A DNA stretch of 64,000 nt from Acidimicrobiales bacterium (GCA_016794585.1 JAEUJM010000026.1:1444-65443); one strand, 5' to 3'. Shown: positions 6,154-45,719, numbered from the stretch's first letter. Program-made: numbers and translations. Notes: generated by a model from the sequence alone, not told the origin.

Positions 6154-6229
6154 GGTCGGCGGTCTCGCCACGCCGCCGGGAACGTCACACCCGCGTGACG
6201 GAAACGACGTTCTCCACTAGCGTGGCGGC

Positions 6230-6676: not shown

Positions 6677-6764
6677 ACCGGCTCGTGAGGCTGCGGAGCG
6701 GAGCGGAGCAGCGGGTGGACCGAACCGGATCCCGAAGGGGGCCCGACGAAGGAGGGCCAAAGCG

Positions 6765-7913
6765 ATGAGCAACGACGTCGCCATCATCGGGGTGGGCCTT
6801 CACCCGTTCGGCCGCTTCGGCCCGAAGACCGCCATCGACATGGGCGCGGAGGCCATCCGAAACGCGCTGGCCGACGCCGGCGCCCAGTGGTCCGACGTGC
6901 AGTTCGCCTTCGGCGGCAGCTTCGAGGTGGACAACCCCGACGCGGTCACCAGCCGCCTCGGCCTCACCGGCATCCCCTTCATGGACGTCTACAACGGCTG
7001 CGCCACCGCGGCGACGGCGCTGCAGCTCACCGCCGATGGGATCCGCTCGGGCCAGTACGACCTGGGCGTCGCGGTCGGGATGGACAAGCACGACTCGGGG
7101 GCGTTCACGTCGGACCCGACCGACTACGCGGCGCCGCCCTGGTACGGCGAGATGGGGTACTTCCTCACCACCAAGTTCTTCGCCATGAAGATCAATCGCT
7201 ACATGCACGACCACGGCATCTCGCACGAGACCCTGGCCAGGGTGGCGGCCAAGAACTACCGCAACGGCGCGCTGAACCCGAACGCCTTCCGCCGCAAGCC
7301 CGTGTCCGAGGAGGACATCCTCGCCTCCCGGATGTTGAACTACCCGTTGACGCACTACATGTTCTGCGCGCCCGACGAGGGCGCCGCCGCGGTGGTGCTG
7401 TGCCGGGCCGACCAGGCCCACAGGTACACATCGACGCCGATCTACCTGCGGGCCACCGCCCTGCGCACCCGTCGCTACGGGGCGTTCGAGGTGCACGCCT
7501 CGTGGGCCGCGGTCGACCAGGAGCCGGCGCCGACGGTGTTCGCCTCGAAGGCGGCGTACGAGCAGGCGGGCATCGGGCCCGAGGACGTCGACGTGATCCA
7601 GCTCCAGGACACCGACGCCGGCGCCGAGGTGATCCACCTCGCCGAGAACGGCTTCTGCGCCGACGGCGACCAGGAGCGGCTGATCGCCGACGGGGCCACC
7701 GAGATCGCCGGCCCGCTGCCGACCAACACCGACGGCGGCCTCATCGCCAACGGCGAGCCCATCGGCGCCTCGGGCCTGCGCCAGGTCCACGAGCTCGTCC
7801 TGCAGCTCCGCGGCCAGGCCGGCGAGCGTCAGGTCGCGGGCGACCCCAAGGTCGGGTACGCCCAGCTCTACGGCGCCCCCGGCACCGCCGGCGTCTCCAT
7901 CCTCACGACGTGA
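6765..7913 (+). CDS. thiolase-like protein (SCP-x / lipid-transfer-protein type)
   Basis: Start at ATG 6765 after GAAGGAGGG. 'VAIIGVG.HPFGR', 'VYNGCATAATAL' and 'NTDGGLIANGEPIGASGLRQ' are present. Confidence 0.8.
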   Translation: MSNDVAIIGVGLHPFGRFGPKTAIDMGAEAIRNALADAGAQWSDVQFAFGGSFEVDNPDAVTSRLGLTGIPFMDVYNGCATAATALQLTADGIRSGQYDLGVAVGMDKHDSGAFTSDPTDYAAPPWYGEMGYFLTTKFFAMKINRYMHDHGISHETLARVAAKNYRNGALNPNAFRRKPVSEEDILASRMLNYPLTHYMFCAPDEGAAAVVLCRADQAHRYTSTPIYLRATALRTRRYGAFEVHASWAAVDQEPAPTVFASKAAYEQAGIGPEDVDVIQLQDTDAGAEVIHLAENGFCADGDQERLIADGATEIAGPLPTNTDGGLIANGEPIGASGLRQVHELVLQLRGQAGERQVAGDPKVGYAQLYGAPGTAGVSILTT

Positions 7914-8028: not shown

Positions 8029-9273
8029 ATGTCCGACAGCACCGTGACCCTGCTCGTGCCCCGTGCGGTGGTCGACATCGAGCTGGGCGAGGTCCTCGAG
8101 GGGGCCTGCATCCGGGTCGAAGGCGATCGGATCGCCGAGATCGGCTCGGACCGAAGCATCGGGTCCGACGCCGACGAGGTGGTCGAGCTCCCCGAGCTGA
8201 CGCTCCTCCCGGGCCTCATGGACATGGAGGTCGACCTCGTGCTCGGCGGCCCGGGCGCCGGCCTCACCGACCCCGTCGTGACCGACCCGGTGAAGATGTC
8301 GCTGCGGGCGACCGTGAACGCCCGGCGCACCCTGCACGCCGGGTTCACGACCGTGCGCAACCTCGGCCTCTTCGTGAAGACGGGCGGCTACCTGCTCGAC
8401 GTCGCCCTCAGCGAGGCGGTCGAAGCGGGCTGGATCGAGGGCCCCCGGATCGTGCCCGCCGGCCACGCCATCTGCGCCACCGGCGGCCACCTCGACCCGA
8501 GCGCCCAGAGCGGCCTCGCGCCGCACATGATGCCGCTGTCGGTCGAGGAGGGGATCGCCGACGGCGTCGACCAGGTGCGCAAAGCGGTGCGCTACCAGGT
8601 CAAGCACGGGGCGAAGCTGATCAAGTGCTGCGCCTCGGGAGGCGTCATCGCCTCGATGGGCCCACCGGGAGCCCAGCAGCTCTCCGACGACGAGCTCGCG
8701 GCCATCGCCGACGAGGCCCACCGGCGGGGCCTGAGGGTGGCGGCCCACTGCCACGGCGACGACGCCGTCAACGCGTGCATCGACGCCGGGATCGACTGCA
8801 TCGAGCACGGCTTCATGATCACGGAGCCGACCATCGAGCGCATGGTGGCCACGGGCACCTTCCTCGTGTCGACCAACGCCCTGGCCGAGAACTGGGACGT
8901 CTCGCGCCACCCGCCGGCGATGCAGGCCAAGGCGGCGGAGGTGTTCCCCAAGGCGAGGGAGTCGCTGTCCAAGGCGATCGAGGCCGGCGTGAAGATCGCC
9001 AGTGGCAGCGACGCGCCCGCGATCTGGCACGGCCGCAACGCCGAGGAGCTCGTGGTCCTGGTGAAGCGGGGGATGACGCCACTGCAGGCCATCCGGGCCG
9101 CCACGATGGTGAGCGCCGAGCTCATCGAGGCGCCCGACCTCGGCCGCCTCGCCCCGACGATGCTCGCCGACATCGTGGGCGTGCCGGGCGACCCCCTCGA
9201 CGACATCAGCGTGTGCCGCGACGTGGCCTTCGTCATGCAGGGCGGCCGGATCGCCAAGCGCCCCGTGGCGTAG
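8029..9273 (+). CDS. metal-dependent amidohydrolase family protein
   Basis: 'LLPGLMDMEVDL', 'KCCASGGV', 'AAHCHGDDAV...IEHG' and 'SGSDAP' are typical amidohydrolase_1 metal ligand stretches. Confidence 0.8.
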   Translation: MSDSTVTLLVPRAVVDIELGEVLEGACIRVEGDRIAEIGSDRSIGSDADEVVELPELTLLPGLMDMEVDLVLGGPGAGLTDPVVTDPVKMSLRATVNARRTLHAGFTTVRNLGLFVKTGGYLLDVALSEAVEAGWIEGPRIVPAGHAICATGGHLDPSAQSGLAPHMMPLSVEEGIADGVDQVRKAVRYQVKHGAKLIKCCASGGVIASMGPPGAQQLSDDELAAIADEAHRRGLRVAAHCHGDDAVNACIDAGIDCIEHGFMITEPTIERMVATGTFLVSTNALAENWDVSRHPPAMQAKAAEVFPKARESLSKAIEAGVKIASGSDAPAIWHGRNAEELVVLVKRGMTPLQAIRAATMVSAELIEAPDLGRLAPTMLADIVGVPGDPLDDISVCRDVAFVMQGGRIAKRPVA

Positions 9274-9301
9274 CGGTCCTAAGCGTGGCCCGGGCGAGTA
9301 T

Positions 9302-9316
9302 GAGAACAACGTTATG
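9302..9316. promoter_or_regulatory. operator-like palindrome site 1 (GAGAAC-AAC-GTTATG)
   Basis: Member of a 5-copy motif family. Overlaps a -10-like TATGAT. ATG 9327 lies 11 nt downstream, so the transcript may be leaderless. Confidence 0.55.
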
Positions 9317-9326
9317 ATCTGCGCCC

Positions 9327-10745
9327 ATGGCCCTCCGCCCACGTCTCGTGCCCCTCGCCGTCGTCGTGCTGCTCGTGCTCGGCGCCGCCGCCTGCTCGTC
9401 ACGCGGTGAGGACGCGGCCCAGGAGGGGAGCGGCTCGGCCACGACCACGAGCGCACCCTCTGGCGCCGACGGCGAGACGTTCGGCACGCAGCCCTCGCAC
9501 TGCAGCGAGAGCGACGACGCCGGTGACACGACGACGACCGAGGCCGGCGGCGGCTCCGAGGACGCGAGCCAGACCACCGGGGTGAGCGACGACGCCATCG
9601 CCATCGGCACGATCTCCGATCCGGGGTTCACCGGACAGCCCGGGCTCAACCAGGAGCTCTTCGACGCCGGCCAGGCCTTCGTCGAGTGGTGCAACAGCCA
9701 GGGCGGCATCAACGGTCGGCCCATCGAGCTCACCGAGTACGACGCGGCCATCTTCGACTACGCCGCCAAGGTCACCGAAGCCTGCGGTGAGGTGCTCGCC
9801 CTCGTCGGCGGCGGTGGTGCCCAGGACACGGAGTGGTCCTCGACCGGCCAGGAGTGCGGCCTCGTCGACATCGCCGCCTACGCGGCCACGCCGGAGAAGG
9901 GTGGCCCGGCCGGCAACGACAGCGTCATCGAGCGGCGCACCGTGCAGCCGGCTCCGAACCCGCAGGACCGCTTCCCGGTGGGCGACATCCGCCTGCTGGC
10001 CGAGGAGCACCCCGGCGCCCTCGACCGCGTCGGGATCATGTACGCCGACTTCGGCACCCTGATCACCATCGCCGACCGCACCGCCGAGGCCTACGAGCAG
10101 GTGGGCGCCACCATCGTCTCCGAGCAGTCCTACAACGTCACCGGTGAGGCCAACTGGGCGCCCTTCGTCCAGAACCTGAAGGACGACGGGGTCGAATGGC
10201 TCAACTTCGTCGGCGACGGCACCTTCCTGGCGCAGCTCCAGCAGGCCATGGCCGAGGCCGACTACTCACCCGAGGTCATCGCGCAGGACGCCAACTTCTA
10301 CGACCAGGGCTACCTGGACGCCGCCGGTGACGCGGCCGAGGGCACCTTCGTCCGGTCCTCGTTCGTCCCCTTCGAGGAAGCCGACGAGAACCCGGCCGTG
10401 CAGCAGTACATCGACCTCGTCGAGGGCATCGACGGCGAAGTGGCCCTCCTCGGGGCCCAGAGCATGTCCGCCTGGCTGCTCTTCACCCAGGCGGCGGACG
10501 CCTGCGACGACGCGGGCACCTTGACCCGCGACTGCCTGCTCGAGGAGGCGGCCTCGGTGACCGAGTGGGACGGCGGCGGGCTCCACGCCCCCACGAACCC
10601 CTCCGAGAACGAGAGCGCTTCCTGCGTCATCGTCATGCAGGTCCAGGACGGGACGTTCGTCCGCCACCAGCCCCAAGACGAGACCTTCGCCTGCGGCGAC
10701 GACTACATCGCGCAGCTCGAGGGCGACTTCACCTCGTCCGACTGA
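9327..10745 (+). CDS. Liv-type (Peripla_BP_6-like) substrate-binding lipoprotein, orphan
   Basis: Signal peptide + lipobox 'LGAAAC', S/T/D/G-rich linker, then 'IAIGTISD...WCNSQGGINGRPIEL...ALVGGG'. Confidence 0.75.
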   Translation: MALRPRLVPLAVVVLLVLGAAACSSRGEDAAQEGSGSATTTSAPSGADGETFGTQPSHCSESDDAGDTTTTEAGGGSEDASQTTGVSDDAIAIGTISDPGFTGQPGLNQELFDAGQAFVEWCNSQGGINGRPIELTEYDAAIFDYAAKVTEACGEVLALVGGGGAQDTEWSSTGQECGLVDIAAYAATPEKGGPAGNDSVIERRTVQPAPNPQDRFPVGDIRLLAEEHPGALDRVGIMYADFGTLITIADRTAEAYEQVGATIVSEQSYNVTGEANWAPFVQNLKDDGVEWLNFVGDGTFLAQLQQAMAEADYSPEVIAQDANFYDQGYLDAAGDAAEGTFVRSSFVPFEEADENPAVQQYIDLVEGIDGEVALLGAQSMSAWLLFTQAADACDDAGTLTRDCLLEEAASVTEWDGGGLHAPTNPSENESASCVIVMQVQDGTFVRHQPQDETFACGDDYIAQLEGDFTSSD

Positions 10746-10767
10746 ACCGGTCGGTACCCTTCGTCCC

Positions 10768-11382
10768 GTGACGGACGCCGCCGACGCAGAGGCCGTTGAC
10801 GACGCGCCGGCTCCCCTCACGCGGGACCGGCTGCTCGAGCTCGCCGGTCAGGTGTTCGCTGACGAGGGCTACGCCGCGGTGTCCGTGCGCGATCTCGCCC
10901 GGCGCTCGTCGCTGACCACCGGCGCGATCTACGCCCACTTCCTGAACAAGGCCGACCTGCTCGTCGAGGCCATCGACGCGCGGGTCGACGCCGGGGTCGA
11001 GGCGCCCCGGGACATCGAGACGACCTTCCGCGCCTACCTCGAGGGTGTGGGCCGGCGCTATCCGGAGCGGGCCCAGCTCCGGGCACTGCTCCTCGAGGGG
11101 GCCGCGGCGGCTCGAGGTGATGCCGCAGTCCGCGAGCGGCTCAACCGCGAGCAGGAGCGTCGGCTGGAGTCGTGGATCGTCGAGTACGAGGCGGCGCAGG
11201 GCTCGGGCGAACTCGACCCCGACGTCGACATGCGCGCCGCGGTGATGATGCTCTGGGCCATCGAGCTCGGGCTCGGGGTGCTCGAAGCGTTCGCGATCGA
11301 CGCCCCCGACCCGGAAGCGTGGGCCGACCTGACCCGGCGGTTCATCGAGTCCATCGAGGGACCGTCCGGCCGCTCGGGCTGA
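10768..11382 (+). CDS. TetR/AcrR family transcriptional regulator
   Basis: HTH 'GYAAVSVRDLARRSSLTTGAIYAHFLNKADLL'. Confidence 0.85.
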   Translation: MTDAADAEAVDDAPAPLTRDRLLELAGQVFADEGYAAVSVRDLARRSSLTTGAIYAHFLNKADLLVEAIDARVDAGVEAPRDIETTFRAYLEGVGRRYPERAQLRALLLEGAAAARGDAAVRERLNREQERRLESWIVEYEAAQGSGELDPDVDMRAAVMMLWAIELGLGVLEAFAIDAPDPEAWADLTRRFIESIEGPSGRSG

Positions 11383-11405
11383 GGACGGCGGGCTGGCCCG
11401 CCCTC

Positions 11406-11420
11406 CATAACATCGTTATC
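11406..11420. promoter_or_regulatory. operator-like palindrome site 2 (CATAAC-ATC-GTTATC)
   Basis: Same arms as the other sites, different 3-nt spacer. -10-like TATCCT; GTG 11429 is 9 nt downstream. Confidence 0.5.
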
Positions 11421-11428
11421 CTCGGCTC

Positions 11429-12199
11429 GTGGATCCCACGACGTTCTCCTCCCTGTTCGACATGTCCGGCCGCGTGGTCATCGTGACCGGCGGCACCCGG
11501 GGCATCGGCCGGGCCCTCGCCGAGGGCTACGCCTGTGCCGGCGCCACCGTCGTGGTGGCCAGCCGCAAGGCCGAGGCCTGCGCCGAGACCGAGGCCCACC
11601 TGCGTTCGCTCGGCGTGGATGCCCTCGGCGTGCCCACCCACCTCGGCGACCTCGACGACCTCCAGGCCCTCGTCGACCGCACGGTCGACGCCTTCGGGGG
11701 GATCGACGTGGTCGTCAACAACGCGGCCACGGCCCTCGCCCAGCCGATCGAGGACTACACGGTGGAGGCCTGGGAGAAGTCGCTCGACGTGAACCTCCGC
11801 GGTCCTGTCTTCCTCACCACCAAGGCCCTCCCGCACCTGAAGGCGAGCGAGCACGCCGCGGTGCTCAACATCCTCTCCGGCGCGGCGTTCATGTTCTCGC
11901 CCAACATCTCCCTCTACGCCACGGGCAAGGCCGGGCTGCTCGCCCACACGCGCTCGGCGGCGGCGGAGTTCGCCCCGTTCGGCATCCGCGTGAACGCCCT
12001 CGCCCCGGGCACGGTGAACACCGACATGGTGCGGGCGAACTCGCCCGACCGTCAGGAGATGATGAGCCAGATCATGCTGCTGAAGCGCATGGCCGGCCCC
12101 GATGAGATCGTCGGGCCCGCCCTCCTGCTCACCTCCGACGCCGGCAGCTTCATCACCGGCCAGGCCCTGCTCGTCGACGGCGGCATGGTGCCGCACTGA
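11429..12199 (+). CDS. SDR family oxidoreductase
   Basis: 'VVIVTGGTRGIGRA', 'NNAA' and 'YATGKAG' catalytic motif. Confidence 0.85.
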   Translation: MDPTTFSSLFDMSGRVVIVTGGTRGIGRALAEGYACAGATVVVASRKAEACAETEAHLRSLGVDALGVPTHLGDLDDLQALVDRTVDAFGGIDVVVNNAATALAQPIEDYTVEAWEKSLDVNLRGPVFLTTKALPHLKASEHAAVLNILSGAAFMFSPNISLYATGKAGLLAHTRSAAAEFAPFGIRVNALAPGTVNTDMVRANSPDRQEMMSQIMLLKRMAGPDEIVGPALLLTSDAGSFITGQALLVDGGMVPH

Positions 12200-12230
12200 C
12201 GGCCCGCTGCGCGGCGCCCGCCGGTGAACC

Positions 12231-14894
12231 TCAGATGGCCGCCCGGTCTGGGAGAAATTCGCCGACGGCGCAGGAGTAGCCCGCGGTGCCGGGGCCCTGC
12301 TCGTGGCGCTGCCCGTCGGGAAGGACGACGTCGGCGAAGGCGCCGGGCGGGACCTCGACGTCGAGGTCGAAGCGGCCGGTCTCGATCCGCCAGGCGGATC
12401 GGGCGCGGCCGCGCCGGCTGTCGTGGACCGCCTCCGCGTGGGTCAGGCCGCCCCCGGGCAGGGGCGCCACGGTGAAGCGCTCGTACGCGGGGTGGTCGGG
12501 GTCGGGCCGGAGCCCGGCGACGTGGCGGTGCAGGAAGGTGACGACGGCACCCTTGCTGTAGTGGTTGAGCGAGCCGTCGCCCTGGGCGTCGACGCCCTCC
12601 CAGTGCTCCCAGATCGTGGTCGCCCCGCGATCGACCATCGCCAACCACGACGGCGGCGTGTCCTGGAACAGGAGGCGGTAGGCGAGGTCGAGGTGGCCGT
12701 GGTCGGCCAGCACGGGCAGCAGGTACGGCGTGGCCAGGAACCCCGTGGTGAGATGGTCGCCGGCGGCGTGGACGAGCTCGGCGAGTCGGTCGGCCGTCGC
12801 CGCCCGCAGGTCGTCGGGGACGAGGTCGAACGCCAAGGCCCGCACCAGGTTCGGCTGCGTGTCCGGGGCGATCCGCCCGTCGTCGGCGATGAACTCTGCC
12901 CGCCATGCCGCGAGGCTGCGGTCGGCGAGCTCCCGGTAGCGCTCCGCCTCCTTGTAGCGGCCGAGGAGGCCGGCGATCTGGCCGAGCCGCCGGGCGGACA
13001 GGTGCAGGTAGGCCGTGGCCACGTCGGCGAGGTCGGCCTCCCGGGTGAAGACGGTGGTGGGATCCGAGTCGGGCTCGCACCACTCGCCCCAGTGGAAGCC
13101 GGTGTCCCAGAGGTACGTCTCGTGGTCGGCCGGCTCGGGTCGGCTCGCCGCTCGGGTCGGGTGGCGGTCGTTCGCGGCCGTCGTCGCCGCGAAGTCGACC
13201 CAGGCGGCCATCGAGTCGAACTGCTCGGTGAGGAACCGCTCGTCGCCGTACTCGACCCACATCTCCCAGGGCACGAGCACGGCAGCATCGCCCCAGCCAG
13301 AGGAACCGGTCATGAAGCGGGCGAGGTCGTGGTCGTACGCCGCAGGGCCGGCGGGGTCCGGCGTGAAGTTGGGGACGCGGCCGTCAGGCCACTGGTCGGC
13401 GCGCAGGTCGCGCAGCCATTTGGCCGAGAAGCCGGCCACGTCGTAGAGGAAGGCGGCCGTGGGGGCGAAGATCTGCCAGTCGCCGGTCCAGGGCGCCCGC
13501 TCGCGCTGCGGGCAGTCGGTGGGCACGTCGCAGGCGTTGTCCCGGAAGCTCCAGATGGCGGCCTCGTGCAGCCGCTCGAGGCGGTCGTCGCTGCACGAGA
13601 ACCAGCCCGTCCGCACGAGGTCGGTGTGGACCACGACACCGGTGACGTCGTCGGCGGTCAGGGGCGCCTCGTGGCCGTCGACCTGGACGTACTGGAAGCC
13701 GTGGGTCGTGTGCCGGGGCTCGAAGGTGTCCGTGGGCTCGCCGCGCGAGACGACCTGATCGACCTGGCCGGGCGACAGCGCCTCCTGCTTCATGAAGTCG
13801 AACGGCACCAGGTGGTCGAGGGTCACGCGGCCGGCCTCGTCGAGCATCTCCCCGTGGGTGAGCGTGGTCGTGGCGCCGGCGGGGCCGAGCGAGCTCAGGC
13901 GCACCCAACCGTTGATGTTCTGACCGAGGTCGACGACGTCGACCGCGCCGGCCCCGTCGCCGACCCGGGTCACCGAGAGGGGACGCAACTCCTCGGTCCG
14001 GCGCACCGGCGGCGCCGGCGAGGACGTCAACGTGGCGAAGCCGAGGTCGTCACGCGCCGCGCACGGCCGCCAGCCGTCGCGGTCGCCGAACCCCGGCGTC
14101 GACCACCCGTCCTGTCGGAGACGGAGGTCGGCGGCCTCGCCGTCGATGAGGTCGGCGCGCACGATCTCGCCGGTCGAGGACCGCCAGTCCGGCCCGGTGC
14201 CGACGACGACGCGGCCGCCGTCATCGAGCTCCACCACCACCTGGACGAGCAGCGCGACCTGCGATCCGAAGCAGTCGTGCTCACGGGTGAACCCGTTCTT
14301 GCCGCGGAACCACCCGTCGCTCAGTACGGCGCCGACGGCGTTCGGCCCGGGCCCGACCAGGTCGGTGAGGTCGTAGGTCTGGACGTCGAGGTTCGCCCGG
14401 TAGGCGGTCGACCCGGGTGCCAGCTCGATGTCGCCGGCGCGGCGGTTGTTCACGAACAGCTCGTACAGACCGTGCGCGGTGGCGTAGGCGCGGGCCCGGG
14501 CCACCGTGGCCTCGGCGGGCAGGTCGAAGGTGGCGCGCAGCAGTTGGGCCGGGCGCTCGCCCGCGGGGGCGACCTCACCCTCGGCAGGGGAGATCCACGA
14601 CGCGGACCAGTCGCTCGGGTGGAGCAGGCCCGTCTCCCACGTCGAGGTGTCCGACCAGTCGCTCTCACCGGCGTCGGTCCAGACCTTGACCTGCCACGTC
14701 ACGCTCTCCCCGGATCCGACCCCGGGGCCGGGCCAGGGGACCCCGATGTGTCGCTCACCCTCGATCCGGCCGGACTCCCACCCGTCGGCCCGGACGGCGA
14801 AGGCCTCCTGGCGCGCTGCGCCGGCGGGCAGCCACCAGGAGAGGCGCGGCGCCGCCACGGCGAGGCCCAGCGGTGCGACGAGGTGTTCGACCAT
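12231..14894 (-). CDS. alpha-L-rhamnosidase (GH78), apparently cytoplasmic
   Basis: 'DCPQRERAPWTGDWQ' and the overall GH78 domain order. Start taken at MVEHLVAPLG (ATG 14894). No signal peptide seen. Confidence 0.8.
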   Translation of the reverse strand: MVEHLVAPLGLAVAAPRLSWWLPAGAARQEAFAVRADGWESGRIEGERHIGVPWPGPGVGSGESVTWQVKVWTDAGESDWSDTSTWETGLLHPSDWSASWISPAEGEVAPAGERPAQLLRATFDLPAEATVARARAYATAHGLYELFVNNRRAGDIELAPGSTAYRANLDVQTYDLTDLVGPGPNAVGAVLSDGWFRGKNGFTREHDCFGSQVALLVQVVVELDDGGRVVVGTGPDWRSSTGEIVRADLIDGEAADLRLRQDGWSTPGFGDRDGWRPCAARDDLGFATLTSSPAPPVRRTEELRPLSVTRVGDGAGAVDVVDLGQNINGWVRLSSLGPAGATTTLTHGEMLDEAGRVTLDHLVPFDFMKQEALSPGQVDQVVSRGEPTDTFEPRHTTHGFQYVQVDGHEAPLTADDVTGVVVHTDLVRTGWFSCSDDRLERLHEAAIWSFRDNACDVPTDCPQRERAPWTGDWQIFAPTAAFLYDVAGFSAKWLRDLRADQWPDGRVPNFTPDPAGPAAYDHDLARFMTGSSGWGDAAVLVPWEMWVEYGDERFLTEQFDSMAAWVDFAATTAANDRHPTRAASRPEPADHETYLWDTGFHWGEWCEPDSDPTTVFTREADLADVATAYLHLSARRLGQIAGLLGRYKEAERYRELADRSLAAWRAEFIADDGRIAPDTQPNLVRALAFDLVPDDLRAATADRLAELVHAAGDHLTTGFLATPYLLPVLADHGHLDLAYRLLFQDTPPSWLAMVDRGATTIWEHWEGVDAQGDGSLNHYSKGAVVTFLHRHVAGLRPDPDHPAYERFTVAPLPGGGLTHAEAVHDSRRGRARSAWRIETGRFDLDVEVPPGAFADVVLPDGQRHEQGPGTAGYSCAVGEFLPDRAAI

Positions 14895-14943
14895 CAGGCG
14901 GGTCGGTGCAGGCACGAAAGCGCTCCGAGGTTCGGGAACAGTG

Positions 14944-14958
14944 GATAACAACGTTATC
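14944..14958. promoter_or_regulatory. operator-like palindrome site 3 (GATAAC-AAC-GTTATC, perfect)
   Basis: 50 nt upstream of the rhamnosidase ATG, in the divergent region shared with the ABC operon. Confidence 0.55.
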
Positions 14959-15011
14959 TGAGGTCGTTGCGTGCTGCGGGGTCGTCGGGGCGGCCCGACG
15001 GGCACGGCCGT

Positions 15012-15026
15012 CAGAACAACGTTATC
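15012..15026. promoter_or_regulatory. operator-like palindrome site 4 (CAGAAC-AAC-GTTATC)
   Basis: 68 nt from site 3. -10-like TATCTT facing the ABC operon. Confidence 0.5.
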
Positions 15027-15060
15027 TTTCTGTTGTCAGGCGCCGCCTGTCGGTTTATGT

Positions 15061-15082
15061 TTGATCGAACAGATTCGATCAA
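15061..15082. promoter_or_regulatory. perfect 9-4-9 inverted repeat TTGATCGAA-CAGA-TTCGATCAA
   Basis: Lies in the rhamnosidase/ABC divergent region. Shares the 12-mer TGATCGAACAGA with the rhaI/deoR divergent region (31136..31147). Confidence 0.55.
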
Positions 15083-15117
15083 CCGGCCGGAGCGGGCGGC
15101 CGGCAGGGGGGAACGCG

Positions 15118-17322
15118 TTGAGCCAGCCGGCCACCACCACCGACGAGGGAGCGCCGGGGCTCGCCGCCGGCATCCTCGAGCGGGAGGCCGAGCGCGAGGC
15201 GGCGGCCGCGGGGGAGCCGGTCCTGTTCGCCGACGACCTCCTGCCCGGCGTCGGCGGCCAGGAGCTGTCCTTTCGACAGGGCCTCGCCGTCGGCGGCCGC
15301 TTCACCTTCCTGGTGCTCCTCGCCCTGGTCGCGCTCGACGAGCTCGAAGGGGCCGCGCTCGGTGTGCTGGCGCCGGACATCCGCGACACCTTCGGCATGA
15401 GCAACGGCGCCATCGTGTTCCTGAGCGCCGCCGCGGGTGGGTTCCTGGTCCTCGGCGCCCTGCCCATGGGGATGCTGGCCGACCGCTTCAAGCGGGGGCC
15501 GATCATCGCGTGGGCGAACATCGCCTTCTCGGTGATGGTGTTCTGCTCCGGGCTGGCGGTGAACGCCTTCAGCCTCTTCTGGGCCCGGTTCGGCGTCGGC
15601 GTGGCGAAGGCCAACTCGCTGCCGGTGCACGGCTCGCTGATCGCCGACGCCTACCCGATCGGCATCCGCGGCCGGATCTCGTCGCTGCTCACCGCCTCCG
15701 CGCGGATCTCGGGAGCCCTGAGCCCGCTGATCGTGGGCGGGATCGCCGCGCTCGCCGGCGGCGTCGAGGGGTGGCGGTGGGCCTACTTCATCCTCGGCCT
15801 GCCCGTCGCGGTGGCCGCCGCCGTCGCCTTCCGCCTGCCGGAGCCACCTCGCGGCCAGTTCGAGATGGCCGATGTCCTCGGCGAGGTCATCGAGGACGAG
15901 CGCCCCGCCCCCGTCTCGGTCGAGGCCGCCTTCTCCCGCCTGATGCAGATCCGCACGCTGCGCACGGTCATCCTGGCCTTCGCGGCGATGGGCTTCGGGC
16001 TCTTCACCGGGCCGGTCCTGACGAACCTGTTCGTCGAGGAGCGCTACGGGCTCGACGCCCTCGAGCGGGGCCTGCTCGGCACCGTGGGCGGCGTCGCGCT
16101 GATCGCGGTGCTCCCCTTCGTGGGGCGCTACTACGACCGGCTCTACCGCCGGGACCCGTCGCGGGCCCTCGCCCTGATCGGCCTGCTCGTCCTCCCGGCC
16201 GCGTTGCTGACGCCGGTGCAGTACTTCATGCCGAACGCCGTCCTCTTCGCCATCGTGGGCCTCCCGCAGCTCGTCCTGCTGTCCACCGCGTTCGCGCTCG
16301 TCGGCCCGGTGTTGCAGTCGGTGGTGCCGTACCGGCTCCGCGGCCTCGGCTCGGCCCTCGGCGCGATCTACATCTTCTTCGTGGGTGCCACCGGCGGTGC
16401 GCTGCTCGCCGCGCTCCTGACGAACCTGTACGGCGTGCGGGCCGCGGTGCTCCTGCTCATGGTTCCCTCCACGCTCATCGGTGGGCTGCTCGTGCTGCGG
16501 AGCTCGACCTTCATCCGCAACGACCTCAGCCTCGTCGTCGAGGAGCTCCGCGAGGAGATGGCCGAGCACGAGCGGCAGCAGGCGGAACCCGACGGCATCC
16601 CCCTGCTGCAGGTCAACGACCTCGACTTCTCCTACGGGCCGGTCCAGGTGCTGTTCGACGTCGGGTTCGAGGTCCGGCGGGGCGAGGTGCTGGCCCTCCT
16701 GGGCACCAACGGCGCCGGGAAGTCCACGGTGCTCCGGGTGATCGCCGGCCTCGGCACCCCCAGCCGGGGCGTGGTGCGCCTCGGTGGCCGCAACATCACC
16801 TATGTCTCGCCGGAGCGGCGCAGCACCCTCGGCATCCACCTGCTCCAGGGCGGCAAGGGCGTGTTCCCCGACCTCTCGGTCCGCGACAACCTCGAGATGG
16901 CCGGCTTCGCCTACCGCCGGGACCATGTCGCCCTCGCCGCCAAGATCGAGCACGTCCTGGGGCTGTTCCCGGACCTCGCCGAGCGCCTCGACCAGCCGGC
17001 CGGCTCCCTGTCGGGCGGCCAGCAGCAGATGCTGGCGCTCGCCCTCGTGCTCCTGCACGACCCCGAGGTGCTCATCATCGACGAGCTGTCTCTCGGGCTG
17101 GCCCCGGTCGTCGTGCAACAGCTCCTCGAGGTCGTCGAGGCGCTCAAGGCCGAGGGCCTGACCATCGTGGTCGTCGAGCAGTCGCTCAACGTGGCCCTTG
17201 CCATCGCCGACCGGGCCGTGTTCATGGAGAAGGGCCAGGTGCGCTTCGAGGGCGTCGCCGCCGAGCTGGCCGAGCGCGACGACCTGGTGCGCGCCGTGTT
17301 CCTGGGCGCCGAGGGCGGCTGA
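15118..17322 (+). CDS. fusion protein: N-terminal 12-TMS MFS domain + C-terminal LivF-type ABC ATPase
   Basis: TTG start after GGGGGGA. MFS motif A 'GMLADRFKRGPII'. C-terminus carries Walker A 'GTNGAGKST', signature 'LSGGQQQ' and Walker B 'LIIDELSLGL'. Confidence 0.75.
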   Translation: MSQPATTTDEGAPGLAAGILEREAEREAAAAGEPVLFADDLLPGVGGQELSFRQGLAVGGRFTFLVLLALVALDELEGAALGVLAPDIRDTFGMSNGAIVFLSAAAGGFLVLGALPMGMLADRFKRGPIIAWANIAFSVMVFCSGLAVNAFSLFWARFGVGVAKANSLPVHGSLIADAYPIGIRGRISSLLTASARISGALSPLIVGGIAALAGGVEGWRWAYFILGLPVAVAAAVAFRLPEPPRGQFEMADVLGEVIEDERPAPVSVEAAFSRLMQIRTLRTVILAFAAMGFGLFTGPVLTNLFVEERYGLDALERGLLGTVGGVALIAVLPFVGRYYDRLYRRDPSRALALIGLLVLPAALLTPVQYFMPNAVLFAIVGLPQLVLLSTAFALVGPVLQSVVPYRLRGLGSALGAIYIFFVGATGGALLAALLTNLYGVRAAVLLLMVPSTLIGGLLVLRSSTFIRNDLSLVVEELREEMAEHERQQAEPDGIPLLQVNDLDFSYGPVQVLFDVGFEVRRGEVLALLGTNGAGKSTVLRVIAGLGTPSRGVVRLGGRNITYVSPERRSTLGIHLLQGGKGVFPDLSVRDNLEMAGFAYRRDHVALAAKIEHVLGLFPDLAERLDQPAGSLSGGQQQMLALALVLLHDPEVLIIDELSLGLAPVVVQQLLEVVEALKAEGLTIVVVEQSLNVALAIADRAVFMEKGQVRFEGVAAELAERDDLVRAVFLGAEGG

Positions 17323-17323
17323 C

Positions 17324-20188
17324 GTGGTCCTGGCCGCGGCGGGCTGGTTCACCCGCCAGCTGCTCTTCGACGGGTTCGTGGACGGGCTGGTCTACGGCCT
17401 CCTGGCCATGGGCATCGTGCTGGTCTATCGGGCCACGCGGGTCATCAACTTCGCGGTCGGCAACCTCGGTCTCGTCGGTGCCGCGCTGTTCGCGCTCATG
17501 GTGGTCCAGTACCGGTTCCCGTTCTGGATCGCCCTCGGTCTGGCCCTGCTCATCGGCACCGCCTTCGCTGCGGCGGTCGAACTCGCCGTCATCCGTCGGC
17601 TCTTCGACGCGCCCCGCGTCATCGTGCTCGTAGCGACCATCGGCATCGCGCAGCTCGCCCTCGCCGTCGTCACCGCCTTCCCCGACATCGAGGACCGCCG
17701 CGCCCGGTTCCCGTTGGCCATCGGTTCCGATCGCGAGATCGCCCAGATCCGGGTGACGGGCGCCCAGCTCGCCGTCCTCGTCGCCGTCCCCGTGGTGGCG
17801 CTCGGGCTCACGTGGGTCCTGAACCGGACCACGCTCGGCAAGACGGTCAAGGCCGCCGCGTCGAACCCCGATCTCTCGCGTCTCTCGGGGATCAACCCCA
17901 AGATCGTCTCCACCGGCGTGTGGGCCCTCGCCGGCCTGGTGGCGACCGTGTCGATGATCCTGATCGCGGGGGACGACGGTTCGGTGACGGACTTCGTCAC
18001 CCTGGGCCCGAACACGCTCGTGCGTGCATTGGCCGCGGCCGTCATCGCGGGCATGACCTCGTTCCGCCGGGCGCTGCTCGCCGGGGTCGTCCTCGGCGTC
18101 GTCCAGGCGCTGCTCGCGTTCAACTTCCTGGACCAGGTCGGCCTGATCGACTTCCTCGTGTTCCTGGCGGTGCTGGTGGCGGTGTTCTTCCAGAGCCGCC
18201 AGGGCGAGCCCGATCGCTCGGTGTTCTCGTTCACCCCCCGGGTCGCGCCGGTGCCCGAGCACCTGCGCGGCCTCTGGTGGGTCCGCCACCTCGACCGGCT
18301 CTTCCTCGTCGCGGCCGGCGTCGCGGCCGTCGCGCTGCCCCTCGTGGTGACCGCCCCCTCTCGGCACCTGCTCTACACGACGGTCCTGGCCTTCGCCCTG
18401 TGCGCGACGTCGTTGACCGTCCTGACCGGCTGGGCGGGCCAGCTCTCGCTCGGCCAGATGGCCTTCGCCGGCATCGGTGCGCTCACCGCCGCCGCCCTGA
18501 CGAGGGGGCTCGCCCTGCACTGGGGCGACCTGACCGTGATCGAGATCTACGCGATGCCGTTCGCGCTCTCGATCGTGATCGCCGGCCTCGTCACCGCGGT
18601 GCTGGCCGTGGCCATCGGCGCCGGCGCGCTCCGGGTCCGCGGCCTGCTGCTCGCCGTGACCACGTTCGCGTTCGGGCTGGCCGCCCAGCAGTACCTCTAC
18701 CGCCGGCCGCTCTTCGTCGGCGAGGGCGGCTCGACCGTCGCCTTCCCCCGTGGCGACCTCCTCGGCCTCGACCTGGCCTCGCAGCGCACCTACTACTACG
18801 TCGTGCTGGCGGTGCTGGCCCTCGCCCTCGCCGTGCTGGGCCGACTGCGGCGCAGCGGCATCGGACGCACCACCATCGCCGTCCGGGACAATGCGGACAC
18901 CGCCGCCGCCTACACCGTGCCGGCCGCCTCGACGAAGCTGCGGGCCTTCGCCATCGCCGGCGGGCTGGCCGGGATCGGCGGCGCCCTGCTCGCCGGCACC
19001 ATCCAGGCCGTCCCCTTCACCGAGCGGTTCTTCCGGGTGGAGGACTCGCTGGCCCTGGTCGCGATGGTCGTGATCGGCGGGCTGGGCTCTCTGAGCGGCG
19101 CGATTCTCGGGGCGATCTGGGTCGTCGGCCTCCCGGCCTTCTTCCCGCAGCAGGAGCTCGTCCCCCTCGTGACCTCCAGCGTGGGACTGCTCGTCCTGCT
19201 CCTCTACTTCCCGGGTGGGCTCGCTCAGATCGGCTACTCGACCCGTCGTGCCCTGCTGGCGTGGGTCGAGCAGCGGGTCCCGGCCCCGCCGCCGAAGTCG
19301 ACCCCCGCCCGACCGAGCCTCCACCGGGAGCGCGCGCGGCCGCCGGCCGGGGACACGCCCGCCGTCGGGCCCCTCGCGGCCACGGACGTGCGCGTCCGGT
19401 TCGGTGGGATCGCCGCGGTGGACGGCGCCTCGATCGAGGTGCGCGAAGGCGAGGTCGTCGGCCTCATCGGCACGAACGGCGCCGGCAAGTCCACCTTGAT
19501 GAACGCGATCGGTGGTTTCGTCCCCAGCACCGGCCGGGTGGAGATCCTCGGGCGGGACGTGTCCCGCCTCAGCGCCGCCAAGCGGGCGTCGCTGGGGCTC
19601 GGGCGCACCTTCCAGTCGGCCACCCTCTTCCCCGAGCTGACCGTGCGGGACGTGGTGCTCGTCGCGCTGGAAGCGCGGGGCCGCTCCCGACTGCTGGGCG
19701 CCGCCCTCGCGCTGCCCGCGGCCCGCCGCCGCGAGCGCACCGCGCGTGTCGAGGCGGCCGAGCTCATCGACTTCCTCGGGCTCGGCCGTTACGCGGATCG
19801 CTACGTGGCGGACCTGTCCACCGGCACGCGCCGCATCGTCGAGCTCGCCGGCCTGCTCGCCCTCGATGCCCGGCTGCTCTGCCTCGACGAGCCCACCGCG
19901 GGCGTGGCCCAGCGCGAGACCGAGGCCTTCGGCCAGGTCATCGGGGAGATCCGGGCCGAGCTCGGCGCCTCCGTGCTCCTCATCGAGCACGACATGCCCC
20001 TGATCATGGGCATCAGCGACCGCGTCTACTGCATGGAGGCGGGCCGGGTCATCGCCGAGGGCCCGCCCGCCGCCGTCCGCGAGGACCCGGCGGTGATCGC
20101 CAGCTACCTCGGGACCGACGAGCGCGCCATCGCCCGCAGCGGCGCCGCGGCCCCCTCGACCTCCTCCGTCCACGACCTCAGCACCTGA
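17324..20188 (+). CDS. triple fusion: LivH-like permease + LivM-like permease + LivG-type ABC ATPase
   Basis: GTG is 1 nt after the upstream stop. 'GLVYGLLAMGIVLVYRATRVINFA' is LivH-like and 'LTGWAGQLSLGQMAFAGIGA' is LivM-like. 'GTNGAGKST...LSTGTRR...LCLDEPTAG' is LivG-like. Confidence 0.8.
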   Translation: MVLAAAGWFTRQLLFDGFVDGLVYGLLAMGIVLVYRATRVINFAVGNLGLVGAALFALMVVQYRFPFWIALGLALLIGTAFAAAVELAVIRRLFDAPRVIVLVATIGIAQLALAVVTAFPDIEDRRARFPLAIGSDREIAQIRVTGAQLAVLVAVPVVALGLTWVLNRTTLGKTVKAAASNPDLSRLSGINPKIVSTGVWALAGLVATVSMILIAGDDGSVTDFVTLGPNTLVRALAAAVIAGMTSFRRALLAGVVLGVVQALLAFNFLDQVGLIDFLVFLAVLVAVFFQSRQGEPDRSVFSFTPRVAPVPEHLRGLWWVRHLDRLFLVAAGVAAVALPLVVTAPSRHLLYTTVLAFALCATSLTVLTGWAGQLSLGQMAFAGIGALTAAALTRGLALHWGDLTVIEIYAMPFALSIVIAGLVTAVLAVAIGAGALRVRGLLLAVTTFAFGLAAQQYLYRRPLFVGEGGSTVAFPRGDLLGLDLASQRTYYYVVLAVLALALAVLGRLRRSGIGRTTIAVRDNADTAAAYTVPAASTKLRAFAIAGGLAGIGGALLAGTIQAVPFTERFFRVEDSLALVAMVVIGGLGSLSGAILGAIWVVGLPAFFPQQELVPLVTSSVGLLVLLLYFPGGLAQIGYSTRRALLAWVEQRVPAPPPKSTPARPSLHRERARPPAGDTPAVGPLAATDVRVRFGGIAAVDGASIEVREGEVVGLIGTNGAGKSTLMNAIGGFVPSTGRVEILGRDVSRLSAAKRASLGLGRTFQSATLFPELTVRDVVLVALEARGRSRLLGAALALPAARRRERTARVEAAELIDFLGLGRYADRYVADLSTGTRRIVELAGLLALDARLLCLDEPTAGVAQRETEAFGQVIGEIRAELGASVLLIEHDMPLIMGISDRVYCMEAGRVIAEGPPAAVREDPAVIASYLGTDERAIARSGAAAPSTSSVHDLST

Positions 20189-20229
20189 TGCAGCACGTCA
20201 ACCACACCGTCCACCAGATCGGGAGTCCC

Positions 20230-21576
20230 ATGCGCAAGTACCTCGTCCTCGTCCTCGCCGGCGTGCTGCTGGCCGGCGCCTGCTCGGTCGGCGGCAGCGA
20301 CGACGACGCCGCCACGACCACCACGGCGGGGTCCGGCTCGGACAGCACCGCCACCACTGCGGCGACGGCCACGTTCCCGCCCGACGACCGCTCGACGGGG
20401 GTGACCGCCGACAGCATCAAGGTCGGCATCCCCTACGTCGACCTGGCCTCCCTCGGTGACGTCATCGACATCGACCACGGCGACTACGAGGCCGCGTACA
20501 CCGCGATCATCGACGACATCAACGCCGGCGGTGGCATCAACGGGCGCCAGATCGACCCGGTGTTCGCGCCTGTCCTGCCCGTCGGCACCGCGCCCGCCGA
20601 CGAGGCCTGCACCAAGCTGACCGAGGACGAGCAGGTCTTCGCCGTCGTCGGATTCGCCATCGACGACGCGCCGCTCTGCTACGTGAACGCACAGCACGAC
20701 ACCCCGCTCATCAACAGCGGTCCCATCACCGACGCCCGCCTCGCCGACGCCAAGGCCCCCTGGTTCAGCGTCGTGGCCAGCCAGGAGCGGGTGAACACGA
20801 CGCTGATCGACGCGTTCGCCGCCGACGGGGTGTTCGACGACGCCACCGTCGGCGTCGTCGCCATCCCCGAGGACCAGGCGACCATGGACGACGTGACCGT
20901 GCCCGCGTTGGAGGATGCCGGGGTGACCGTCGCGGACACGGCGGTGATCGACGCGCCCGCCGACGACCAGGCCGCCGCGCAACAGCAGGTGGGCGTCATC
21001 GCGGAGCGCTTCGACGCTGCGGGCATCGACACCGTCGTCACGGTCGGCAACGCCGGCCTGCCGACCGCGCAGGGCTTCGAGGTGACGGACTACCGCCCGC
21101 GCCTGGTCGGGACCGGGTTCGAGTCGCTCGCCACGTACGTCGGTGGCGAGGCCGGCTTCGACGAGACCGTCATCGCCGACGCAATCACCGGCGGCTACGC
21201 GACGTCGGGCGTCCAGGCCGACGAGCAGGACATGCAGGAGTGCGCCGGCCTCGTGGAGGAAGCGACCGGGACGACGCTGCCCGACCCCGCCGACATCGAG
21301 GCCGGCGATCCCGAGCCCTATGTCTCGGTCTTCGCGGCGTGCCTCCAGCTCGGCCTTTTCGAGGCGATCGCCACCGCCGCCGGCGATGACCTCAACAACG
21401 GCACCTTCGGCCAGGCCGGCTACGACCTCGGCGAGGTCGACCTCCCCGGCGACGGTGGGGGCTCGACCTACGGGCCCGACTCGCTCGACGGCGACATGCC
21501 GATCTACCTGTTGCGCTTCGACGCCGACGCCGGCCGGTTCGTCAGCGACACCGAGGCCACCCCCACCGACGGCTAG
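20230..21576 (+). CDS. Liv-type substrate-binding lipoprotein (cognate to the fused ABC system)
   Basis: ATG after GGGAG. Lipobox 'LLAGAC'. 'IKVGIPYVDL...INAGGGINGRQIDPV...FAVVG'. Confidence 0.8.
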   Translation: MRKYLVLVLAGVLLAGACSVGGSDDDAATTTTAGSGSDSTATTAATATFPPDDRSTGVTADSIKVGIPYVDLASLGDVIDIDHGDYEAAYTAIIDDINAGGGINGRQIDPVFAPVLPVGTAPADEACTKLTEDEQVFAVVGFAIDDAPLCYVNAQHDTPLINSGPITDARLADAKAPWFSVVASQERVNTTLIDAFAADGVFDDATVGVVAIPEDQATMDDVTVPALEDAGVTVADTAVIDAPADDQAAAQQQVGVIAERFDAAGIDTVVTVGNAGLPTAQGFEVTDYRPRLVGTGFESLATYVGGEAGFDETVIADAITGGYATSGVQADEQDMQECAGLVEEATGTTLPDPADIEAGDPEPYVSVFAACLQLGLFEAIATAAGDDLNNGTFGQAGYDLGEVDLPGDGGGSTYGPDSLDGDMPIYLLRFDADAGRFVSDTEATPTDG

Positions 21577-21682
21577 CGCGCACGGCCGCTGCCGCCGACC
21601 CTCGGGCGAGGGCCGGCGGCGGCCGCCCTCGTCGGAGGGGTCGGGTCCGTTGACGGGCCGACAGCGCTCCTGGCGACCGGTC

Positions 21683-21697
21683 GATAACAACGTTATG
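21683..21697. promoter_or_regulatory. operator-like palindrome site 5 (GATAAC-AAC-GTTATG)
   Basis: 96 nt upstream of the WS/DGAT start. Its last 3 nt are the ATG of a 33-codon ORF that ends ATGA-overlapped with WS/DGAT. Confidence 0.5.
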
Positions 21698-21792
21698 GTG
21701 ACGCCGAAGGGGCCGTCCCCGGGGGGAAGAAGCGACGTGGGTCATCGAGGTGTCGTCCATCGGGAGCACGCGGACGTGTTGCGCAGGTCCCG

Positions 21793-23118
21793 ATGATCCG
21801 GCTCGACGGTCCCGACCTCTTCCAGCTGCACCAGGAGCGCCCCGACCAGCCCACGCACACGCTCAAGGTCGCGCTGCTCGAGCGGGCGGTGGACGATGCG
21901 GCCGTCGACGCCTGGGCGGCCGAACGGCTGACCGGGCTCCCGCCGATGCGCTGGGTGCTCGCCGGGCCCCGCTGGGCCCGTCCGGTGCTGGTCGACGGTG
22001 GTCCGCCGAACCTCGCCCACCACGTCAACCACGCAGCCCTGCCCGGGCCGGGTGGGGAGGCCGAGCTCCGCGCCGCACTGGCAACGCTGTGCGCGGGGCC
22101 GCTCGACCGCGCCGAGCCGCTGTGGCACCTCACCCACCTCACCGGCCTGGCCGGCGGGCGGAGTGCCTTGGTGTTCCAGGTCCACCACCTGCTCGCCGAC
22201 GGCGCCGCGAGCGTCGCGCTCTGGGAGGCACTCGCCGACGGGTCGGCGGCGCCCGTCGCTCCGGCGGCACAAGGTGCCGCCTCGCCGTCCCGGGCACAGG
22301 ACGCACTCCGGGCCGGCGCGGGGGATCTCGTGAAGCTGCCTGGTCGGGTGGGTCGTTTCCTGGGCGCCTCCCGCCGCCAGGTCGCGGACGCCGAGCACGG
22401 CCCCGCCCAGGTGTTCGCCGGCCCGATGACCTCCTTCAACGGCCCGCCCGAGGCGGCGCGCGCCTGCGCCTTCGCGACCCTGGCGCTGCCGGACCTGCAG
22501 GCGGTCCGAGCCGCGAGCGGCGCCACCCTCACCCAGGTCTTCCTCACCGTTGCCGGCGGGGCCATCCGGCGTCTCCTGGTCGAACGTGGTGAGACCCCCG
22601 ACGCCGGGCTCACCGCCACCGTGCCGACCGCGCTCCCGGACCGCAGGCACGACTACGGCAACGCGGTGACGACGCTCTACGTGGCGCTGCACTCCGAGAT
22701 CGAGGGTCCGGCGGCCCGCCTCCGAGCGGTCGGGGCCAGCCTCGGAGCGACCCGCGGCGCCACCGACGTCGACCCGCGCGTCCTGCCGGACCTCCAGCGC
22801 TACCCCCGCCTCTACGGCGGTCTCGTCAGCTCGATGGAGTGGGTGGCCGCCCGCAAGGGCCGTCCGGCGTACAACGTCATCGTGTCGAGCGTCCGCGGGC
22901 CGCAGCCGTTCTCGCTCATGGGTGTCCCGGTGGTCGAGCTGCGCTCGCTCGGCCCGCTGTCGGGGCACCTCGGCCTCAACCTGACGGGGTGGAGCTACGG
23001 CGACGACTTCATGGTCGGCATCCACAGCACCGCCTCGGCCGGCGCCGACCTCGATCGGCTCGCGGCGCTCCTCACCGACGAGTTGGACGCGCTCCGACGA
23101 GAGGTCGGCACCGCATGA
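21793..23118 (+). CDS. wax ester synthase/diacylglycerol acyltransferase (WS/DGAT) family protein
   Basis: Active-site motif 'HHLLADG' (HHxxxDG) and overall length. Confidence 0.8.
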   Translation: MIRLDGPDLFQLHQERPDQPTHTLKVALLERAVDDAAVDAWAAERLTGLPPMRWVLAGPRWARPVLVDGGPPNLAHHVNHAALPGPGGEAELRAALATLCAGPLDRAEPLWHLTHLTGLAGGRSALVFQVHHLLADGAASVALWEALADGSAAPVAPAAQGAASPSRAQDALRAGAGDLVKLPGRVGRFLGASRRQVADAEHGPAQVFAGPMTSFNGPPEAARACAFATLALPDLQAVRAASGATLTQVFLTVAGGAIRRLLVERGETPDAGLTATVPTALPDRRHDYGNAVTTLYVALHSEIEGPAARLRAVGASLGATRGATDVDPRVLPDLQRYPRLYGGLVSSMEWVAARKGRPAYNVIVSSVRGPQPFSLMGVPVVELRSLGPLSGHLGLNLTGWSYGDDFMVGIHSTASAGADLDRLAALLTDELDALRREVGTA

Positions 23119-31077: not shown

Positions 31078-31111
31078 GTCCCTCCCGAGGTCCTCGACGA
31101 GGCTTGCCCCG

Positions 31112-45716: not shown

Positions 45717-45719
45717 GGC

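Follow-up and report, generated by a model that had tools for sequence, protein, structure and literature searches.

Introduction

Operators of ~15 bp, each bound by one homodimer, have been described as typical of TetR regulators (PMC9210681). BioQ of Corynebacterium glutamicum, a TetR-type repressor of biotin genes, occupies the operator TGAAC-N3-GTTAC as one homodimer (PMC9210681), and KstR of Mycobacterium, also of the TetR type, represses a large lipid and cholesterol catabolic regulon with a 14-bp motif, TnnAACnnGTTnnA (PMC1995591). Here we analyze a stretch of 64,000 nucleotides from an Acidimicrobiales bacterium (GCA_016794585.1 JAEUJM010000026.1:1444-65443), called the window throughout, in which five copies of a 15-bp dyad with the consensus GATAAC-RWY-GTTATC are spread over 12.4 kb close to the promoters of a gene cluster that also encodes a TetR-family regulator (10768-11382). 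Comparison of this region with related genomes leads us to regard the dyad as the likely operator of that regulator, which would act as a repressor.

In operator architecture, BioQ and KstR appear to be the closest of the described systems. The window system resembles BioQ in regulator family, in an odd-spaced palindrome with an AAC-N3-GTT core, in a length of about 13 to 15 bp, and in its distribution over several local units. The outer half-site differs, however, being (G/C)ATAAC here and TGAAC in BioQ, and the targets here are solute-binding proteins (SBPs), a short-chain dehydrogenase (SDR), a glycoside hydrolase family 78 (GH78) enzyme, an ATP-binding cassette (ABC) transporter, and a wax ester synthase/diacylglycerol acyltransferase (WS/DGAT), with no biotin genes among them; on these two grounds, we rejected membership in the BioQ regulon. 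The host, too, belongs to the Acidimicrobiia and not to the Corynebacteriales, the likeness being judged from operator and targets.

With KstR, the system shares the AAC...GTT half-site cores and an association with many lipid-related catabolic promoters, including those of thiolase/DUF35-type, SDR, and acyl-CoA enzymes. The spacer, in contrast, is 3 nt here (in the five sites and in 81 matches from related loci described below) versus 2 nt in KstR, the half-site phasing differs, and the window has no steroid ring-degradation genes. Against KstR structures, the window TetR gives a marginal match (24.9 bits, E = 1.5e-4, residues 18 to 126), which does not mark it as an orthologue of Rv3574/KstR, and on this score and the spacer, membership in the KstR regulon was rejected as well. 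The same two observations make suspect the name "cholesterol catabolism regulator" (KstR) that JGI gives to a homologue with 73% identity, P0051, which is probably an over-annotation.

TetR/tetO itself (general knowledge and PMC9210681) combines a homodimer on a promoter-overlapping palindrome of ~15 bp with autoregulation, an adjacent transporter, and derepression by a ligand, features that we propose for this locus. The operator sequences are unrelated, however, and TetR/tetO has two operators in one divergent region versus five over 12.4 kb here, where the targets are mostly metabolic genes and not a drug efflux pump. GusR, the glucuronide-responsive regulator of Escherichia coli and Salmonella (PDB 6ayh and 6ayi), controls a glycoside hydrolase and a transporter; it is the best sequence match to the window TetR among solved structures (E = 2.8e-11) and one of the best structural matches (template modeling score, 0.64 to 0.71), yet identity is just 23 to 24%, with no sign of a common ligand pocket or similar operators. 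Full-text literature searches for the motif string returned primer sequences only.

Five dyads in the window

An earlier note on this DNA had claimed five related 15-mers. All of them were found, with coordinates and sequences correct (Table 1), and it is confirmed that they lie far beyond chance. In a window with 72.6% G+C, the plus strand has GTTAT at the five sites and ATAAC at three of these, and neither pentamer anywhere else in the 64 kb, so the note's impression that GTTAT is confined to the sites was accurate. With up to two mismatches allowed, GWTAAC-N3-GTTATC is found at five places only (ten strand-matches) versus 0.34 expected in shuffles, and the core AAC-N3-GTTAT gives 8 strand-matches versus 0.02 expected in 100 dinucleotide shuffles. 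A symmetric position weight matrix (PWM) built from the five sites and sites from orthologous loci scores the five at 25.4 to 28.4 bits and the next window matches at 15.5 and 10.2 bits; in 20 shuffles, the top scores were mostly 7.5 to 14 bits, with one at 19. No copy of the dyad occurs in the 50 kb of the window that lie beyond the gene cluster.

Distribution of the dyad among related TetR loci

An alignment of 31 TetR homologues was used to scan one genome per species, which yielded 80 loci (numbered with the prefix L) of 20 kb each, 1.3 Mb in total, with TetR identities of 39 to 82%; nearly all are labeled Acidimicrobiia or unclassified Actinomycetota metagenome-assembled genomes (MAGs). 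At a threshold of at least 16 bits, a window-derived PWM found 81 matches in these loci versus ~2 in shuffles, a ~40-fold excess. All of the matches have the 3-nt spacer, and the symmetric positions of the dyad are conserved across them. Match density peaks in the 1- to 2-kb bin upstream of TetR, where a two-gene operon with TetR as its second gene would begin, and in the 1-kb bin just downstream, and no match lies inside the TetR gene. The zone within 2 kb of TetR makes up 24% of the sequence and contains 42 of the 81 matches (p = 5e-8). Genic and intergenic densities, a comparison on which the earlier note had staked its proposal, also came out in its favor, with 10 of the 81 matches in coding-like context versus 67% of random positions (p = 2e-24) and 88% outside it.

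The association is closest where the regulators are most alike. In 11 of the 12 loci with TetR identity of at least 55%, a site scoring at least 16 bits stands no more than 2.5 kb away, and the twelfth has the variant AGTAACAGCGTTATG ~110 nt upstream of TetR. About 30 of the 80 loci have no match at all, and the motif is therefore not ubiquitous in these genomes. SDR and TetR are the most consistently linked targets. Two other regulators encoded in the window, a DeoR protein (about 31104-31940) and a second TetR (62890-63603), have homologues in 2 of the 80 loci each.

Conservation upstream of orthologous genes

Footprinting of orthologous upstream regions, another check named in the earlier note, showed that the promoters of the SBP-TetR operon (8 genomes) and of SDR (11 genomes) have diverged around the motif, which forms an invariant block in them. 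In the former set (alignment A2), A.AACAACGTTATG is the sole common block and the flanks have diverged; the counterpart of site 1 stands in the same place in L001, L003, L005, L006, L007, L063, and L076, and in L001, where the SBP orthologue is 90% identical, the upstream site is the same. In the SDR set (alignment A3), only TA(A)C...GTTA(T) is invariant or nearly so, and the dyads are usually completed to TANNNT by the next bases (TATCCT, TATGGT, TATCGT, TATCAT, or TATCTT). The 15-mer upstream of the L001 SDR is identical to site 2.

The sites also track the TetR lineage across rearranged contexts. In L046 and L050, with TetR proteins 45 to 47% identical to that of the window, SDR and TetR are divergent and the dyad fills the short intergenic region, with 16 to 37 nt separating it from the SDR match and 11 to 23 nt from the TetR match, an arrangement classical for TetR regulators. 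Even where another gene has come to lie downstream (L003, L004, L007, and L063), the site stays beside TetR. The form GATAACCTCGTTCTC adjoins the start codon in L003, L004, L007, L063, and L076 and lies after TetR in L004, L063, and L076; its left arm provides the -10 box TAACCT of these promoters, and the gene that follows it in L003 is, by Pfam, a TauD-family dioxygenase and not an SDR.

Orthologues of the other units carry the dyad as well. A single copy is shared by GH78 and the divergent SBP-TetR operon in L003, L007, and L063, and the GH78 orthologue of L002 also has the motif in its divergent upstream region. Upstream of the orthologues of the window's fusion of a major facilitator superfamily (MFS) protein and an ABC ATPase in L065 and L070 stands TATAACAACGTTGTC, overlapping TAGCGT. 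The pair formed by WS/DGAT and an epimerase is syntenic in L001, L008, and L066, and in L001 and L066, it comes directly after the site-bearing SDR. The closest relative, L001 (10675-13822), has SDR, WS/DGAT, and epimerase side by side; in the window, GH78 and the transporter operon, a block of ~9.5 kb within 12231-21576, sit between SDR and WS/DGAT. This block carries two dyads of its own, and another dyad precedes WS/DGAT. Targets of the dyad in other genomes include Amidohydro_2, SnoaL_4, TauD, and an unannotated 343-amino-acid family.

A separate observation on these neighborhoods concerns proteins of about 345 to 370 amino acids with the N-terminal signature LRPVAPPRV..Y.D..YE (for example, L008, about 10600-11630, minus strand), which have no significant Pfam match. 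The family is present in 37 of the 80 loci, where it is among the most frequent TetR neighbors and has a dyad directly upstream in 14 of its 37 copies, and it is absent from the window.

Promoter geometry

The position of the dyads relative to promoters and start codons is close and recurrent. The earlier note had placed a TANNNT hexamer, resembling a -10 box, at every site; this stood for sites 1, 2, 4, and 5 (TATGAT, TATCCT, TATCTT, and TATGGT, respectively) and failed for site 3, the plus strand of which lacks TANNNT. On the minus strand, that of GH78, site 3 contains the hexamer TAACGT. The note's remark that start codons come close behind sites 1 and 2 proved sound, the distances after the motif being 10 nt and 8 nt, respectively. 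TATGAT of site 1 ends at 9318, with the ATG of the SBP-TetR operon at 9327 (9 nt), and TATCCT of site 2 ends at 11422, with the SDR GTG at 11429 (7 nt). There is no space at either site for a Shine-Dalgarno sequence or ribosome-binding site, and both units were scored as candidates for leaderless transcription (TANNNT ending 6 to 8 nt before the start codon). Leaderless mRNAs are plausible at both sites, and for SDR, one is predicted because the GTG follows exactly 7 nt after the -10 box. The start codon lies 8 to 10 nt after the motif in the window and in L001, L008, L046, and L050, and in all of these, as well as in L053 and L066, TANNNT overlaps the right arm.

The remaining sites are farther from their genes. 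GH78 most likely starts at GTG 14915, as judged by homology with L003 and L063, which puts site 3 28 nt upstream. The WS/DGAT ATG (21793) comes 95 nt after site 5, and site 4 lies ~90 nt upstream of the transporter operon, taken to start at ~15118.

The TetR protein

The proposed binder has a TetR_N helix-turn-helix domain (PF00440, E = 7e-13, residues 22 to 67) and is 100% identical to a protein of an Acidimicrobiales MAG. Its AlphaFold2 model (mean predicted local distance difference test score, 87.6; predicted template modeling score, 0.80) has 10 helices arranged in the all-helical, two-domain TetR fold, and in a Foldseek comparison to the PDB, all of the top matches listed are TetR-family or TetR-fold regulators, such as EthR, KstR2, and AvaR1. 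In the 31-sequence alignment, the helix-turn-helix segment is almost invariant among homologues with at least 60% identity; the recognition helix varies little among homologues, and the motif core is constant. As a clue to operator or ligand, solved relatives were discarded, the matches being generic to TetR proteins and the best of them (GusR, PfmR, and AvaR1) no more than 25% identical. The ligands bound by the structural neighbors are themselves diverse. The ScbR-family model scores 65 bits versus a cutoff of 150.

Proposed mechanism and alternatives

The idea put forward in the earlier note, that one dimeric repressor encoded by this TetR gene co-regulates five units, is supported by comparative genomics through co-occurrence, proximity, and footprints. 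We propose that one TetR homodimer would occupy each dyad, where it would cover or adjoin the TANNNT hexamer and so block RNA polymerase, giving repression rather than activation. The unit behind site 1 would consist of SBP and TetR itself, and because just 22 nt separate the SBP gene from the TetR start, that site would also bring TetR under its own control. SDR, the GH78 rhamnosidase, the MFS-ABC/LivHMG/SBP transporter operon, and the WS/DGAT gene with its epimerase would make up the other four repressed units. Derepression would follow when a small molecule, plausibly a lipid-like or glycosidic compound serving the pathway as substrate or intermediate, occupies the C-terminal domain and frees the protein from DNA.

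Several observations weigh against this assignment. The evidence that pairs TetR with the dyad is co-occurrence throughout, and SDR is tied to the motif about as consistently as TetR is. At TetR identities of 41 to 55%, a site of at least 16 bits is nearby in only 19 to 44% of loci, and many distant homologues are accompanied by degenerate variants only, such as GATAYC-N3-GTTATA and TGTAAC-N3-GTTATC. Because most of the loci come from MAGs of related families, shared ancestry accounts for some of the conservation. Between site 4 and its start codon, ~90 nt away, come a separate sigma-70-like promoter and a second palindrome, which together with the distance make the role of this site at the transporter operon less clear. 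About half of the matches lie more than 2 kb from TetR, and an unlinked regulator with a clustered regulon therefore keeps a small probability.

Such a regulator would be a different transcription factor, global or pathway specific, encoded elsewhere and counting TetR as just one of its targets. The distant half of the 81 matches, the wider regulon in other genomes (Amidohydro_2, the 343-amino-acid family, and SnoaL_4), and a local TetR assignment founded on co-occurrence speak in its favor. We nevertheless judge it unlikely, as TetR is the sole regulator consistently present, DeoR and the second TetR being confined to 2 loci each, and the dyad both occupies the short divergent SDR/TetR region of L046 and L050 and follows TetR when its neighbor changes; the ~30 loci and the 50 kb of window outside the cluster that lack the motif also argue against it. 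The dyad could otherwise be a core promoter element and not an operator, for instance, one recognized by an alternative sigma factor. Every copy overlaps or adjoins TANNNT, its spacing to leaderless start codons is fixed, and the GAAC and CGTT within it resemble the -35 and -10 cores of extracytoplasmic function (ECF) sigma factor promoters. The gap from GAAC to CGTT, however, is 2 to 3 nt versus roughly 16 to 17 nt in ECF promoters, the dyad is strongly two-fold symmetric (with site 3 a perfect 6-3-6 palindrome and symmetry-related positions conserved across the 81 matches), and the -10 register varies: TATGAT falls within the dyad, TACCCT behind it, and TAACCT or TAACGT in its left arm. We hold this explanation to be very improbable.

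Nor does either remaining candidate fare well. Binding of the dyad by DeoR, the gene for which lies 9.5 kb from site 5, would tie GH78 to the functionally related rhamnose catabolic genes that stand with DeoR at 25.9 to 31.9 kb. There are, however, zero copies of the dyad near the rha genes or the DeoR gene, homologues of DeoR are as rare as stated above, and a different palindrome common to the DeoR/rhaI and GH78/ABC regions makes a better DeoR candidate, leaving this explanation hardly any credence. Being short, AT-rich, and repeated between genes, the dyad might also be a chance repeat, a mobile repeat resembling repetitive extragenic palindromes or miniature inverted-repeat transposable elements, or an RNA hairpin or terminator, in each case with no regulatory role. 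Chance is excluded by the shuffles, and the flanking sequences of the five copies have no mutual similarity, which makes a mobile repeat unlikely. Hairpin stability does not exceed that of shuffled sequence (z scores of -1.8 to +1.0), a T-tract is lacking, the copies precede genes rather than follow them, and their positions are kept across genomes despite diverged flanks. This last explanation is, in effect, already refuted, and we retain TetR as the likely binder of the dyad.

Gene neighborhood and other palindromes

Gene calls were taken from Pfam and NCBIfam scans of the window, under which the gene labels of the earlier note hold (Table 1).

Table 1. Putative operator sites and neighboring genes in the window
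Feature	Position	Strand	Sequence	Remark
Possible weak sixth site	6200-6214	.	GGAAACGACGTTCTC	Just upstream of TAGCGT, 15 nt before GTG of DUF35-thiolase-amidohydrolase genes
DUF35/ChsH2-type OB protein	6230-6676	+		
SCP-x-type thiolase	6657-7913	+		
Amidohydrolase	8029-9273	+		
Putative operator site 1	9302-9316	.	GAGAACAACGTTATG	Overlaps -10 box TATGAT (9313-9318)
Peripla_BP_6 lipoprotein SBP	9327-10745	+		First gene of SBP-TetR operon
TetR-family regulator	10768-11382	+		Proposed binder; starts 22 nt after SBP stop codon
Putative operator site 2	11406-11420	.	CATAACATCGTTATC	Overlaps -10 box TATCCT (11417-11422)
SDR	11429-12199	+		
GH78 alpha-L-rhamnosidase	12231-14915	-		Start GTG 14915 by homology; alternative ATG 14894
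Putative operator site 3	14944-14958	.	GATAACAACGTTATC	Perfect 6-3-6 palindrome
Putative operator site 4	15012-15026	.	CAGAACAACGTTATC	Overlaps TATCTT
MFS+LivF-like ATPase fusion	15118-17322	+		First gene of transporter operon (15118-21576)
LivH/M permease+LivG ATPase fusion	about 17198-20188	+		
Second Peripla_BP_6 binding protein	20215-21576	+		
Putative operator site 5	21683-21697	.	GATAACAACGTTATG	Overlaps TATGGT
WS/DGAT acyltransferase	21793-23118	+		
NAD-dependent epimerase/reductase	23147-24184	+		
DeoR regulator	about 31104-31940			9.5 kb from site 5

The transporter operon encodes two unusual composite proteins. In the first, an MFS_1 membrane domain (residues 76 to 421) is joined to a LivF/UrtE-like ABC ATPase, and in the next, a LivH/LivM double permease is fused to a LivG-like ATPase; orthologous pairs of both fusions are found in L056, L065, and L070 at 61 to 70% identity. 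Farther along the window, at 44916-51523, is a hydrogenase-maturation-type cluster with a CobW/HypB-like GTPase, a 1,110-amino-acid HypF carbamoyltransferase, and a HypE-like AIR-synthase-related protein. Across the window, Rfam at the gathering threshold found two tRNAs only, and a terminator scan of 9000 to 22000 found no terminator-like sites.

The possible sixth site scores 10.2 bits, within shuffle noise. L001, a close relative, has a counterpart in the same position (5142-5156) with near-identical sequence, GGAAACGCCGTTCTC, the flanks of which are partly conserved too; this shared position is the reason for listing the element as possible. The element at 6200 may be a weak sixth operator, or it may be just promoter DNA conserved between close relatives.

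Palindromes unrelated to the dyad are also present. Between site 4 and the start of the transporter operon lies the perfect palindrome TGATCGAA-CAGA-TTCGATCA (15062-15081), directly after the sigma-70-like promoter TTGTCA-17-TATGTT (15033-15061). Its sole other near-match in the window, sharing the first 12 nt, is at 31136-31155, in the divergent rhaI/DeoR intergenic region. The palindrome may be a DeoR (RhaR-like) operator, which would add a second layer of control to the GH78/transporter region; the idea of a conserved DeoR operator was rejected because none of the 80 loci has the palindrome, not even the two in which DeoR homologues occur. A match at 63627 (AAGAACGATCTTCTC) was likewise rejected as a further copy of the 15-bp dyad, because a core position is C and not G, and it forms part of a different 6-3-6 dyad with the pattern RAGAAC-N3-CTTCTC. 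The two copies of this pattern, AAGAAC-GAT-CTTCTC (63627-63641) and GAGAAC-TGC-CTTCTC (63669-63683), lie 24 and 66 nt upstream of the second TetR gene (minus strand), which adjoins a luciferase-like monooxygenase gene and the product of which is 20% identical to the first TetR. This dyad is probably the second TetR's own operator.

Implications for the Acidimicrobiia

Mechanistically, the proposed system is a textbook TetR-type switch, and its general significance is limited: it is an uncharacterized TetR repressor/operator pair in an uncultured lineage, useful for annotation and holding no mechanistic surprise. For a region with nothing characterized before, the analysis supplies a motif, the regulator that probably acts on it, and the genes that would be under joint control. 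The predicted co-regulation joins genes that annotation would not, namely, two orphan Liv-type SBPs, the MFS-ABC hybrid, GH78, SDR, and a wax ester/triacylglycerol synthase, and it suggests a single pathway for the uptake, processing, and storage of a lipid-like or glycosidic substrate. That the target set serves uptake and processing of such a compound is speculation on our part. The motif can be used as a probe for regulon reconstruction in other Acidimicrobiia MAGs.

A broader and more doubtful possibility is that TetR and its operator are the master switch of an undescribed, lineage-wide regulon in uncultured Acidimicrobiia (Microthrixaceae, Iamiaceae, and Acidimicrobiaceae). This regulon would comprise capture by Liv-type SBPs and the MFS-ABC hybrid, cleavage by GH78, and neutral-lipid storage by WS/DGAT, with a conserved set of enzymes (Amidohydro_2, SnoaL_4, TauD, and the 343-amino-acid family without a Pfam match) as members elsewhere, and its operator would double as a leaderless -10 element, sometimes in both directions. 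If this were true, lipid accumulation in wastewater bacteria like Microthrix would become more tractable.

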